64,000 nt of DNA from Octopus vulgaris (taxonomy: Eukaryota), in contig OX597824.1 in the NCBI GenBank assembly GCA_951406725.2, positions 76,260,001 to 76,324,000 of the forward strand, given 5' to 3'. Below are positions 518-57,915 of the stretch, piece after piece. The stretch's first letter is position 1, and each line of letters opens with the position of its first letter. The notes below the pieces were generated by a model. That model was given only the letters and a program-made list of their open reading frames with translations. It was not told the DNA's origin and searched no databases. Made by a program: the position numbers and the translations under genes.

Positions 518-650
518 TAACAATTGCAGCGTAGAAGGTGTTTGTAAGCATTTAAGAAACACACAAAAGCCGTTCGATTCACTTCAACATTTAAATTTAA
601 TTTGTCAAGATATTTTCGTCGGTTTAAGACCGCGACCTGTTCACTGACAA
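518..650 (-). mobile_element. Short non-coding repeat beside (TA)n, inverted copy of 1675-1806; carries a hammerhead-like motif
   Basis: About 130 bp are reverse-complementary to 1675-1806 with scattered mismatches. Confidence 0.75.
602..650 (-). ncRNA. Minimal hammerhead-like motif, G3-C8 variant core (copy 1)
   Basis: Minus strand: TTGTCA GTGAACA G GTCG-cggtcttaaac-CGAC GAAA ATATCT TGACAA; stems I and II pair; U16.1 is mutated in this copy. Confidence 0.5.
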
Positions 651-1674
651 AAATCCGTGCTGCATCTGAGAAAGTAACAGTTAGTTCATTATATATATGT
701 ACGTATGTATGTGTGTATGTATGTATGCACGCATGTATGCATGGATGCATGTATGTATGTATGTATGTATGTATGTATGTATGTATGTACGTACGTACGC
801 CTGTTTGTATGTATGTGTGTATGTATGTATGTATGTGTGTATATGCTCGCACACACACACTATAAACTGAAAGCTATAAACCAGTAGTGATGGATAGATG
901 TAGACTGACCACTCATCACAACAATATCAAATTTCAACCTCACCCGCCGAAACTAGGAAGTGATTTACGACCCTCACCCCCACGACAAAACTCAAAAACC
1001 TATTATCAGTCACTTATCTCTATATCACAAAACTTTTGTTTTACTATTACTTATCTTTTTTTTTCTTTTACTTTTTTTTCTTTTCTCCATTACATCTAGT
1101 TAGTTCAGGTTATGTATATATACGTATGTATGTGTGTATGTATGTATGTATGTGTGTATGCACGTACGTACGCATGTGCGTATGTATGTATATGCGCACG
1201 TATGCATGTGCGTATGTATGTGTGTGTGTACATGTACGTGCGTATGTACGTGTGTATGCCCATACGCAGGTATGTATGTATGTACATATGTGCTACGTAT
1301 GTATGTGAGTATGTAGGAGAATGTGCAGACGCGTCTGTGAGTATGTGTACATGTGTATGTGCATGTGAACATATGTCCGTGTACTGGTATGTGTCCGTCT
1401 AAGTTGTGTACTTGACTGTTACTTTGTTGAAGGTTGTATATATATACACACATATATGTTTGTTTGTTTGTATAGACGCACACGCATATATATATATATA
1501 TGTGTGGGTGTGTGTTTGTTCCTCTCATCATCGTCTAACGGTGAATGGATACAACGTCTAGGTGCAACTGTGCACATATAACCAATTACATATACACAAG
1601 TACACACAATCATAGAGACACACTCATGAATATTCTTATAATCTTAAATTATATACTTATATATGCTTATCCAC

Positions 1675-1721
1675 TGTCAGTGAACAGGTCACTGTCTTAA
1701 AACGACGAAAATATTTTGACA
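1675..1721 (+). ncRNA. Minimal hammerhead-like motif, G3-C8 variant core (copy 2)
   Basis: TGTCA GTGAACA G GTC-actgtcttaaaac-GAC GAAA ATATTT TGACA; palindromic stem III AATATT. Confidence 0.55.
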
Positions 1722-1865
1722 AATTAAACTTAAATGTTGAAGTGAATCGAACGGCTTTTGTGTGTTTCTTAAATGGTTTACAAACACCTTCCACTCTGCA
1801 ATTGTTTTCGTTTCAGCACACGATCTCAGATCAAATCATTTGCTATGCAAGTACATCTCCGTAAT
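1675..1865 (+). mobile_element. Second copy of the short repeat, ending in a (TA)n tract
   Basis: Reverse complement of 518-650; abuts (TA)n at about 1865-1920. Confidence 0.75.
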
Positions 1866-2238
1866 ATATATATATATATATATATATATATATATATATA
1901 TATATATATATATATATATACATACATGCATGTATGTATGTGATTTAGTTTATTTCAAGATTTCTTGCCATTTGAGAAAGAACCGGTTTTTAACCCATAT
2001 CCAAAGTTACTTCACTGGAATTTCAACATCAACAATTGAGTATTTTTGTATGTATGTATGTATGTATGTATGTATGTATGTATGTATGTATGTATGTATG
2101 TATGTATGTATGTATGTATATATGTATGTATGTATGTATGTATGTATGTATGTATGTATGCGTGTATGTGCAGATTTATATATTTTATGTATGTATTATT
2201 ATGTATATAGTTACATATCTAGTCATGCTCATATATAT

Positions 2239-2625
2239 TTAAATGATAAACTTCTGGAAAGTTTTACACATTTTTACAGTTCCAGTGATGGTTTGGACCT
2301 GTAGTTTTCGAATTAGCTTTCTCCTTTCTGGTTTTGAGAAGCCTAATTTCTCAGGATTGGTATTTAGGCAATGTGTTACATACCCAAGGGCACCAATAAT
2401 TACAGGTATAAACCTGAACTTGTAATCTGGATAGAGTAACTGCAGATTTTTCAATAGTTCAGCATAAGCGTTCTCTTTTTCACTGATCTTCATGTTAACA
2501 TCTGTCGGACAGCTAATTTCCACAACTGTGCACAGTTTCTCTTTTCCATTCCAAATCATTATATCGGGCCTGTGTACTTACAATTTATTGAAGGCTTCAC
2601 TGGTACATTCCACCAGTATTCCTTT
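2239..2625 (-). pseudogene. R4/Dong-clade retrotransposon ORF C-terminus (restriction-like endonuclease domain)
   Basis: KEYWWNVPVK...RPDIMIW...VVEISCP.D...EKE...Y..L...FIPVIIGALG to the stop codon; short tail then (TACA)n. Confidence 0.85.
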
Positions 2626-2644
2626 GATATGTAATCTTCAAATC

Positions 2645-54690: not shown

Positions 54691-55049
54691 ATCTATCTAT
54701 CTATCTATCTATCTATCTATCTATCTATCTATCTATCTATCTATCTATCTATCTATCTATCTATCTATCTATCTATCTATCTATCTATCTATATCTATCT
54801 ACCTACCTACCTACCTACCTACCTACCTACCTACCTATCTATCTCCTGCGCCTATACACACACACACACACACACACATATATATATATATGTACACACA
54901 TATATATATATACATATACACATACATACACAAATACACACACACACGCGCACACACACATATAAACTTAGTGCTGAAAAACCTACAACAGTGAACGCCA
55001 CATGAAGAACTCTCTTTCACCAAACGAGGTTCCATACAACTCCAGCCAG

Positions 55050-55705
55050 ACTAACATACCTCAAAGCAGACGTATATGTGAAACGCTAAGAAAATAAATA
55101 AGCTATGGTTGGGTATGTTTCTCGAAGACTTGAGGATGACACTAATATCGACATGAAGTGTAACCTTTCTGGGACTTGAGATGGCTACATCACATCACAA
55201 TTCGAAAGTTCCAATTCAAGAGAAAGTGACTGCTATAAAATGTCCAATAAGCAAAAGAAACAGTGAAGATTTTCATGCCCCAGTATGCTACAGAAAATAT
55301 GACTTGTGCTCCATGTTTCAGTGGAAGACATTACGTATGGGATCAGCAATTGTCATCAAGGCATTACCTGCATATGAAGCATAACGTTTTACTGAAACAA
55401 TATACATTGCCATCTGGAAAAAAATGTCCAAGGATAAATACAGAAAATCCCAGTTATTACATATATGCATAAACATCAACACAAGGAATATTGGTAGAGC
55501 AATCCTATCAATATTTATACCAAGTGCAAACAACAGGCCGGATATCGTCATCTGATTAAAGAAAGGTATGTAGAATTTCATAGGTTGGTTAACCGGTTGA
55601 TCTGAATATCACTTCAAAAACCAAGGTGAAAGAGGATAACTACGGACGTTCATTTATACCAAGTGCAAACAACAGGCCAGACATCGTCATCTGGGATAGA
55701 GAAAG
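55050..55705 (+). pseudogene. Degenerate R4/Dong-like ORF segment (zinc knuckle and restriction-like endonuclease)
   Basis: MVGYVSR..ID..ITSQFE..IQEK..LC..VEDITY.IS.C..SRHYL..H..NNRPDIVIWDRE; 55512-55553 is duplicated at 55651-55693. Confidence 0.75.
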
Positions 55706-57244
55706 GTCAAACAAACACACATACATGCATAGGCGCACACGCACGTGCATATCCATAAAGTTTCTAATTACTAAATTCCATTCACAAGACATTGCTCGAC
55801 ATGAAACCACAAAGTTACGAACAACATCTTAACCACACAACCATACGCACACACACACACACACATACACACATACTTACACGCACACACGCATACATAT
55901 ATGCGAGCGCACATTTATATCTATATTTCGATACTGTAGATAATATAATTTATGATTTCAATTGCTGCCGATGTTTATTTAACACCATCGGTGTGTAATT
56001 AACACATCTGTATATAAACGAAGATGTAATCCATCTGACACCATAAGTTATCTCCCCTGTGTATGATTGCCCGCAAGTTTGATCAGCCATTATAATATAA
56101 ACTATAATATTAAATGCAGTGGATAAAACGGAATCAGTAAAAGTAACAGAAACAGAAGACCTCTGGGGATAATTAACAAGTGTAATAGTGTAGTATTTCA
56201 CTTGATTCCATATTTGAAACCTGCCAAGTTTGTGTTCGTTTAATATTACTAAATGGAAGAATTATTTGTTAATTGATATATGTTAATTTGTGCGATGTAG
56301 AATTAGGATATATAAAATCATTTTCTAAATGGAAAATGATTGAAGGACGTGGATCTTTTCTGTTTTGCTGCCACTTTTCAATTTCTTCAATTTTTGTTCA
56401 AATTGAATTCATATTTGGCGTATTGGTGTAGTTTTGTAAAGTAAGCGTTGCCGTGAAATTCATTTTCCCCATAAATTAATATATAAAGAGTTAAAAGCTT
56501 TTAAAGTTTGCAAATTTTGGGTAGTTTTAGCTAATCGAAAGCCACAGATATAAAAAGGTATATAAAAAGGTACCTGTTTCTCAAGTAATAAGCCAAGCTG
56601 ATATTAAGCTTCATACCACGTGTTCTTTTTGTCGCTTACTAAATGCTTTAAACATATGCGGTATTAGATGTGCTGAGAATAACAGCTAAATAGTCTTTAA
56701 ATCACGTACGATGTTTTTGGTTTTTGCATAATCGCATGAATTTTTATGTGTATAATACAAATTCGCAAAAATTTTCTGAAAATTCCAAAAAATAAAATAA
56801 GTTGAGAGGAATTATATGGCATCCATAAAGCGGAATTCCGCCTATACTTACTTTGTTTACAGTTGAAAGCATGTGCTGTCATGCAAAAAAAATGACAGTT
56901 TCCAAATTCTGTTTTCTGGGTGGGTAAAACTCAATAAATTGTTTTGAAACTTTTTCTGGAAGAAGTGAATTATCTCCAGAATTCGAGCGTGAAAAATTAC
57001 ATAAAAACATCAGTTTTAAAATTTTCACTAAACTTCAAAATTTCCATAGGTGCAAACCAGATACAAAAGAGCCAAGGACGTTTTGGTCTCCTAAGTTGAT
57101 AAGAAAGTATTGAATTTTAAGCCATATAAGTTGTGTTGTTCTCGTTGTATAACCCGAAGTCAGATCTTAATGAGTAGACTTACAGCAGACAGGTAGTGAG
57201 CCGACTGATTAGGCGTTATGGTGTTCGGCGCAGGTCTGCGTGAT

Positions 57245-57530
57245 ATGTGTGGCTTAGCGGTTAGGGTGTTGGTTTTATGATCGCAATAACGTTGTTTCGA
57301 TTCTTGGACAGGACGGTGTGTAGCGTGTTCTTAACTTTTACTTGGTTTCAGTCGCTGGCCTGCAACCACGAAGGATCCTAGTCGAAGGAATCGCCCCAAC
57401 TTCGTACTTTTTTTTAAAGTCTGACAATTACACTGTCGATCTCTCTTAGCAAACCGATGGATTACGGGAACGTAAACAAATCAACACCGGTTGTCAAGCG
57501 GTGATAGAGGACAAACACAAAGAAGACACA
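57245..57530. mobile_element. Diverged SINE family C head (+) abutting a diverged family A tail (-)
   Basis: gtggcttagcggttagggtgttgg..gtttcgattc; cgggaacgtaaaca..cggttgtcaagcg..gacaaacaca. Confidence 0.6.
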
Positions 57531-57741
57531 CATAGATATATAAATAAATACAGAGAGAGAGAGAGAAAGAAAGAAGAAAGAGAGAGGTATGCAGGTAGTT
57601 TATCCCGACCCCCTCCGACTTATAGTTTCATGCAATTGAAAAACCCACATTATTTATGGGATGACCTCCCCCCATATATATACATATATATATATATATA
57701 TATATATATATATATATATATATATATATATATATATATAT

Positions 57742-57915
57742 AAGGTAAATTTTACGAAAATAAACAAAAGACGAAGGCAGGTGGTGTACAAACAAACAAA
57801 TGTATTAGTATAGCGCTCAGGAATAGAAAAAAGTCTTTTACGTTTCGAGCCTACGCTCTTCCACAGAAAAATACACAGAAAAAAACAAGGAGAGAAACAA
57901 GAAGAGAAATAAATG
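57742..57915 (-). mobile_element. (TA)n-inserted short element, copy 3
   Basis: acaaaagacgaaggcaggtgg..tgtattagtat.gcgctcagga..cgtttcgagcctacgctcttc shared with 47981-48142. Confidence 0.82.
57834..57871 (-). ncRNA. Minimal hammerhead-like motif, A6U variant (copy 3)
   Basis: Minus strand: TTTTT CTGTGGA A GAGC-gtag-GCTC GAAAC GT A AAAGA; GUA triplet. Confidence 0.55.

Follow-up and report, generated by a model that had tools for sequence, protein, structure and literature searches.

The window analysed here, 64,000 nucleotides of the Octopus vulgaris genome (assembly GCA_951406725.2, contig OX597824.1, positions 76,260,001 to 76,324,000 of the forward strand), belongs to a 2.8-Gb assembly rich in microsatellites and short interspersed nuclear elements (SINEs). 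It contains nine minimal type-I hammerhead ribozyme motifs, which lie in the terminal repeats of Penelope-like retroelements (PLEs) and fall into six sequence families. All nine motifs listed in a first-pass annotation of this DNA are present, and at each of them stems I and II enclose the core and GAAA in the type-I manner. The extra nucleotide which that annotation placed before stem II had to be revised at 41900 and 44703, where an A-C mismatch closing stem II is the better reading. The six families, here called A (602, 1675), B (36077), C (41556), D (41900), E (10461, 48081, 57834) and F (44703), were each confirmed as dispersed repeats, and stem III is indeed palindromic in five of them (seven of the nine sites). 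The proposed neighbourhood of (TA)n tracts also holds: a tract of (TA)5 or more lies within 170 nt downstream of eight of the nine sites, as against 18% of random positions (binomial p about 1e-5). The window copies themselves are likely dead, left at (TA)n sites (Table 1).

The motifs were searched with a descriptor composed of stem I, a core with a Watson-Crick 3:8 pair, zero or one extra base, stem II, GAAA, a short stem III and stem I'. Its final version was composed after the sites were known, two prior versions having caught four and six of the nine. It recovers eight of the nine motifs with at most one deviation and all nine with at most two, together with one additional, non-palindromic match at 12400. 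The shuffled control proposed in the first-pass annotation leaves real DNA well above background: 100 local dinucleotide shuffles of the window gave means of 0.25 matches (at most one deviation), 1.46 (at most two) and 0.02 palindromic ones. An independent sample of 60 evenly spaced 10-kb pieces of the genome (600 kb) gave 19 matches, 10 of them palindromic, and eight shuffles of this sample gave one to three matches and no palindromic one. With at most one deviation and a palindromic stem III, the window (6 per 64 kb) is about five times denser than the sample (10 per 600 kb), partly because the descriptor was fitted to the window. This late fitting of a loose descriptor could be taken to mean that the motifs arose as folds by chance, in DNA that is AT-rich and dense in repeats, and an Rfam scan of the window had no hammerhead family among the 150 of 524 matches listed, which were dominated by microsatellite matches to microRNA families. 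However, the shuffles and the genome-wide pattern controls refute this explanation, to which we give practically no weight. The exact pattern of family A, with positions 3, 7 and 8 left free, has 8,809 matches in the genome against 6 for the reversed control, and that of family E, the commonest family, has 26,720 against 0 with positions 6 and 7 free. Moreover, the same architecture recurs, in six unrelated sequences, at a corresponding place of the PLE ends.

Table 1. Hammerhead-bearing copies and PLE relics in the window
Feature	Positions	Strand	Description
Family A long copy	519..1675	-	5'-truncated 3' untranslated region of a GIY-YIG PLE; ends in (TA)n without optional tail; common to L164, which has the endonuclease end
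Family A hammerhead	602..651	-	G3:C8 core; C in place of U16.1 and stem II mismatch (decayed); predicted cut after 608
Family A inverted head-to-head partner	1675..1864	+	Hammerhead 1675-1721 (G3:C8), optional tail of ~55 nt, then (TA)n
Family E short copy	10449..10577	+	Between two (TA)n tracts; hammerhead 10461-10499, U6 and C9
Reverse transcriptase relic of old PLE family	18270..20880	+	Broken, SINE-interrupted; start approximate; endonuclease end of same family at 17192-17510
Broken linker and GIY-YIG region	24031..24639	+	Older relative of family E protein; 47% identity to L266 frame, E 1.6e-40
Family B partial unit	35888..36295	+	Part of 518-538-nt head-to-tail repeat without open reading frame; canonical hammerhead 36076-36137
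Family C short copy	41477..41760	+	Hammerhead 41555-41599, C9, bulged stem I, non-palindromic stem III
Family D short copy without intron	41790..41975	-	Exon 1 remnant 41975-41955 joined to exon 2 at 41954; canonical-core hammerhead 41900-41945
Family F long copy	44587..46739	-	Last codons of Hydra-clade endonuclease, 2.1-kb 3' untranslated region, canonical-core hammerhead 44703-44780, then (TA)n
Family E short copy	47981..48140	-	Hammerhead 48081-48118, U6
Family E short copy	57741..57940	-	Hammerhead 57834-57871, U6

The assignment to PLE-type minimal hammerheads with a palindromic stem III, already made in the first-pass annotation, is supported by the fold and by the links of the families to PLE ends. 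The same annotation had described a dense population of independent non-autonomous elements, and this does not hold for families A, C, D, E and F, for each of which other copies extend upstream into an endonuclease frame of GIY-YIG type, accompanied in C, E and F by a reverse transcriptase (RT). The carriers could thus be mapped to PLEs for five of the six families but not for family B and, because these five were traced to endonuclease-encoding copies, most of the motifs are fragments of coding elements. The loci behind these links were chosen for long upstream sequence, so that the following fractions are not frequencies. Family C reaches an RT and a GIY-YIG domain in five of five fetched loci. 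The young element of which family F forms the 3' end (identity 94-98% over 2.2 kb) has both domains; RT or endonuclease matches were found in 10 of 13 fetched loci, and in one of them (L161) the open reading frame is flanked by two same-strand family F hammerheads. Of 19 relatives of the relic near 24 kb, five have the family E hammerhead about 0.8 kb downstream of a Neptune-type frame, and three more match the E flank; one of them combines an open frame with a U6 hammerhead 94% like the window copy. The open frame of L266 has RVT_1 and GIY-YIG matches below the Pfam cut-offs. Family A runs into an endonuclease end related to that of C in two of four fetched loci, and family D into a Hydra-type endonuclease, 35% identical to that of F, at L342. 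Pfam gave no match for the Hydra-type or the A/C endonucleases, and no more than sub-threshold RVT_1 and GIY-YIG matches for C and E. One element protein has a homologue named from Octopus. As in described PLEs, families A, C, D and F form head-to-head inverted pairs, such as the A pair of the window with its joint at 1675, and have two alternative 3' ends, with or without a tail of 55-75 nt. At 41760-41790, families C and D stand tail to tail on a single (TA)n tract, and L125 also has both side by side; these elements thus seem to insert into each other's tracts.

The two relics at 18820-20810 and 24260-24600, proposed earlier as remains of the mobilising elements, are both pieces of PLEs, but both are broken by stops and so neither can be the mobiliser. 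The first belongs to an old family, about 70% identical to its relatives, in which no hammerhead was recognisable and which was not linked to any of the six families. It is cut off by a lone D-type tail at 20880-20975 (+), located before (TA)n/(AAT)n and followed by a diverged inverted partner (about 21115-21200, -, 77%). The idea, suggested by this tail, that the relic was the partner of family D was rejected, since the partner of D is of Hydra type and the relatives of the relic are without D sequence.

The catalytic cores are less uniform than the fold. Only three of the nine sites, 36077 (B), 41900 (D) and 44703 (F), have the canonical CUGANGA. Both family A sites have the core GUGAACA, in which the 3:8 pair is G3:C8 (pattern G3-U-G-A-N-C8-A). 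Among the first 100 genome-wide matches listed, all from the start of one contig and counted by hand, 91 are G3:C8, 3 are C3:G8 and 6 are unpaired, and the G3:C8 copies number about 8,000. Two of the C3:G8 places belong to a related family that shares its stem II start with family A, which makes the G3:C8 swap compensatory. The three family E sites have U at the conserved A6, and 10461 has C9 too; a hand count of the first 100 matches listed gave 77 U6, 20 A6 and 3 C6. At the family C site, C9 is combined with a bulged stem I and a non-palindromic stem III; all 20 fetched loci have C9, and one relative has A9. The natural core variants described in the literature consulted (Perreault 2011; Cervera and De la Pena 2014, PMC4209133) are U3:A8, A6C, insertions and U15.1-A16.1; a search for mutational scans found none. 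For natural G3:C8, our literature search returned engineered cases only, its coverage excluding the largest survey of such variants (Lunse et al. 2016), which may already list these cores; G3:C8, U6 and C9 are all absent from the 56 representatives in Figure S3 of PMC4209133.

Several observations concern further variation. In a sister family of E, characterised by A6 and a loop of 3-4 nt (L197, L208, L214, L226, L232, L036, L075, L168), U4 is replaced by C4 in six copies, apparently a fourth fixed core variant. In family D (L300-L329), the base opposite A10.1 is C, A or G according to subfamily, so that stem II ends in a mismatch and C11.1 is not kept. Two diverged relatives of family A were each seen once, L160 (minus strand, near 7333), which retains G3:C8 with a different stem III palindrome, and L281. 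More hammerhead families absent from the window, with other stems and palindromes, were met in L180, L191, L230, L146, L171 and L177, the last having U6 in unrelated sequence.

For family E, we selected 53 copies using only the 3' flank. Of these, 48 have T at position 6 and none has A, while the free positions 7 and 17 vary between sublineages, with three or four different bases at each. A majority of at least 75% is kept by all 26 constrained columns but is missed by 9 of the 35 in the flank (Fisher p 0.007, for columns that are not independent of each other). This conservation suggests that the fold stayed under selection after the loss of A6. Coding constraint as the source of U6 or G3:C8 was set aside, most E copies being without an open frame through the motif, although no formal test was made.

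Very few copies begin at the predicted cut. Starts within 4 nt of it number 0 of 63 in E, 1 of 100 in D, 0 of 15 in F, 1 of 35 in C and 0 of 57 in B; family A has none, in a tally polluted by low-complexity matches at the query end. Copies thus span the cut site without piling up there, which indicates uncut templates. No window site has a same-strand partner within its own insertion, so that cleavage in place is unlikely, and the lowest-energy homodimer is a double hammerhead for B, D and F (three of the nine sites). According to the literature, cleavage by PLE hammerheads is weak and occurs in dimers or with the assistance of protein, and these hammerheads are dispensable for insertion in vitro (Frangieh 2024, PMC11167929, for protein help and insertion). 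On these grounds we read the motifs as slow, dimer-dependent ribozymes of active tandem masters, of which the window copies would be dead by-products.

An alternative that concerns catalysis alone, and is compatible with the copying model given below, is that the variant cores (U6, C9 and perhaps G3:C8) are non-catalytic relics, their fold being kept as a binding or promoter element or drifting, with cleavage not needed for movement. The uncut templates and the in vitro insertion of hammerhead mutants are in keeping with it, as are the spread of Naiads without canonical hammerheads and the low activity that follows a change at A6 (Perreault 2011). However, the sublineages of E split only at the free positions 7 and 17 within the motif, and G3:C8 restores the 3:8 pair in most of the family A matches counted, so that we consider this alternative rather unlikely.

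The clearest information on how short copies arise comes from family D, most copies of which begin at a single point. Its long copies diverge from the short ones upstream of a T-rich AG located nine bases before stem I, and the 27-nt head of the short copies is found 1,135 nt (L332) and 1,129 nt (L342) further upstream, where it is followed by GT. The short copies are thus without a GT-AG intron of about 1.13 kb. Exon 1 is joined at that AG in 37 of 49 D hammerheads from 48 pattern-picked loci, 18 of which were chosen by hand from the list, most paired matches being skipped. Spliced and unspliced forms occur in both main subfamilies and share the subfamily letters. From these comparisons, the short D copies likely originate from the spliced 5' leader of the transcript. 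Initiator-like words, judged by what we take to be the initiator consensus, stand at the start of D exon 1 (L332, L342) and, in long copies of A and F, close to where the short-copy starts of these families cluster.

Starts are also grouped in other families. In family A, 27 of 28 mapped pattern-picked copies begin within 19 nt of stem I, despite a 1.4-kb untranslated region (two more loci could not be mapped); in F, 5 of 19 copies begin at 44903-44921, and in C three copies share one start position. In 7 of the 12 short A copies that keep the AG, a G precedes it where the template has C; this may be a copied cap at the transcript start, which we mention as a lead only.

We therefore propose, as a probable overall reading, that the motifs are terminal hammerheads of PLEs whose short copies would be primed in the spliced 5' leader and whose long copies would be primed at a 3' site. 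The links to coding elements, the head-to-head inverted pairs, the optional 3' tails, the (TA)n targets and the loss of the intron in family D, on which it builds, are directly observed. An active tandem element would be transcribed from a promoter in the upstream repeat, giving an RNA with a hammerhead and a reverse-transcription start site near each end. The endonuclease would nick (TA)n, and the RT would start within the RNA, about 80-190 nt behind a hammerhead. Such an internal start, matching the optional tail, is described for a PLE RT (Frangieh 2024, PMC11167929); as a tandem transcript should have an internal start site near its 5' end too, fixed-start, spliced fragments would be expected. 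A start at the 3' site would yield long, variably truncated copies that keep the intron (519-1675 and 44587-46739 in the window). A start at the 5' site would run off at the 5' end of the transcript and yield short copies that all begin at the same point and, if the leader contains an intron, lack it; the copy at 41790-41975 would belong to this class, and probably most short copies of A, C, E and F as well. Two same-sense hammerheads of a tandem transcript would pair via the palindrome and cut slowly, probably aided by an element protein, and the G3:C8, U6 and C9 cores would be tolerated because weak cleavage suffices.

Several points weigh against this proposal. The transcript start, the spliced RNA and cleavage are all addressed from genomic copies alone; no RNA sequencing run was listed for the family F stretch that was looked up. 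The intron is seen in family D only, with a single coding locus for this family, and the coding link of family A is based on two loci. No splice donor that would explain the short A copies was found, and the starts of family E are spread over 0-65 nt upstream, with no single point. Most loci used for the cut-site counts were selected with motif-containing queries, which is a bias against copies starting at the cut. At the six sites of A, C and E, the lowest-energy homodimer takes another form than the double hammerhead, and, given the effect of a change at A6, U6 may be inactive. Finally, a junction variant common to 14 spliced D copies has no unspliced counterpart among those sampled, and an intronless master that propagates itself would fit this.

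This last point, together with the derivation of animal retrozymes from PLE repeats in Li 2026 (bioRxiv 10.64898/2026.07.22.740005), also fits the explanation closest to the first-pass annotation. Under it, each short copy would belong to an independent non-autonomous element, a solo repeat or a retrozyme, that is transcribed by itself, passes through a circular RNA cycle and relies on mobilisation in trans. The long copies of A, C, D, E and F, however, reach coding frames, where a retrozyme would be a non-coding tandem unit; the D loci examined showed no short D units in head-to-tail tandem, the subfamily letters are common to spliced and unspliced D copies, and copies span the cut site instead of starting there. 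As a general explanation we judge it improbable.

Family B is the exception, and the only family for which the non-autonomous, retrozyme-like reading of the first-pass annotation stands. At four loci (L063, L068, L070, L085), its 3' end is directly followed by its own 5' sequence again, the repeat period being 518-538 nt, the unit is without open reading frame, and no adjoining PLE frame was found in the 53 loci tested, some of which are one place fetched twice. This unit of about 530 nt would likely be moved in trans by the PLE machinery. Like the metazoan retrozymes of the non-long-terminal-repeat type (Cervera and de la Pena 2020, PMC7229834; Li 2026), it is non-coding, is repeated head to tail and contains a single type I hammerhead, but it is longer than the 220-390 nt of the examples consulted, its ribozyme is minimal and not canonical, at most about 1.5-2 units are seen, and it is known here from DNA alone.

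Compared with known systems, the kind of hammerhead is not new. Metazoan PLE minimal hammerheads (Cervera and De la Pena 2014, PMC4209133) are likewise of type I with a short stem I and often an extra base before stem II, have a palindromic stem III, and occur mostly as single dispersed copies, in several families per genome and in PLE terminal repeats. The 56 representatives of that paper have CUGANGA or UUGANAA cores, and its descriptors would miss G3:C8, U6 and C9. Leaving aside Lunse et al. 2016, what is added here are these variant cores and the spliced leader copies. Among coding elements, D and F resemble the Hydra-clade PLEs, including Hydra-1_Obim (Craig 2021, PMC8557442), in the CxCx4-5C linker, the CxxC and CxH around the endonuclease end, the (TA)n targets and a hammerhead near the 3' end. 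Family F additionally has the DKT and RW motifs, CxCx5C and the RT motifs of Hydra-1_Obim, and so belongs to the clade by all motifs, whereas D is assigned by those of the endonuclease only. Their 3' untranslated regions of about 2.1 and 2.8 kb differ from the described Hydra elements, which are generally below 3 kb in total, as does the 1.13-kb leader intron of D, mostly spliced out in its short copies, since the account in PMC8557442 stresses intron retention. The Neptune/Nematis-type linker motif (CX2-5CxxC; PMC8557442) is present in C and E; A, C and E are placed by motif and not by tree, and their hammerheads differ in having variant cores. Poseidon of Anolis (PMC11167929) and Penelope of Drosophila virilis (Schostak 2008, PMC2377424) resemble our elements in their AT-rich targets, an optional tail, a short first exon and an intron that ends immediately ahead of the hammerhead, as well as in the internal promoter and the two internal RT starts proposed here. 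Spliced forms are reported there as RNA, whereas here they are the majority of the genomic D copies, and C3G/G8C, engineered in Poseidon with partial rescue (Frangieh 2024), is natural here.

These differences bear on two questions. The first is the role of Penelope hammerheads, for which natural G3:C8 and U6 in young, coding, high-copy elements offer test cases: if such cores cut, the range of functional cores exceeds the accepted one and the largest families escape standard descriptors; if not, the fold is maintained for another purpose. Secondly, Penelope elements are known for keeping their introns, for which an antisense or unspliced template was proposed in the PLE literature consulted, and our literature search for spliced or solo PLE copies returned no such description. 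As the short copies of D are mostly spliced, spliced sense RNA would be copied too, and leader copying would explain simply how solo terminal repeats originate and how retrozyme-like elements could emerge. More tentatively, and with less confidence than in the copying model itself, we suggest that Penelope RTs may copy their own spliced 5' leader by internal start, hence the 'solo' hammerheads across animal genomes, and that the most successful elements of this genome may use G3:C8 and U6 hammerheads still under selection that cut with protein help.

The rest of the window contains other repeats. The segment at 2239-2800 (-), with an internal duplication, is presumably the end of a retrotransposon without long terminal repeats with a restriction-like endonuclease motif, and those at 7116-7676 (+) and 31288-32307 (+) resemble what we take to be L1/Tx1-type retrotransposon frames. 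A SINE-like repeat at 33249-33611 is in tandem with a 193-nt period, and longer arrays of it occur in L236 and L373. Finally, a Thr/Asn-rich open frame of 192 codons at 30059-30637 (+) is possibly a host exon or repeat-derived.

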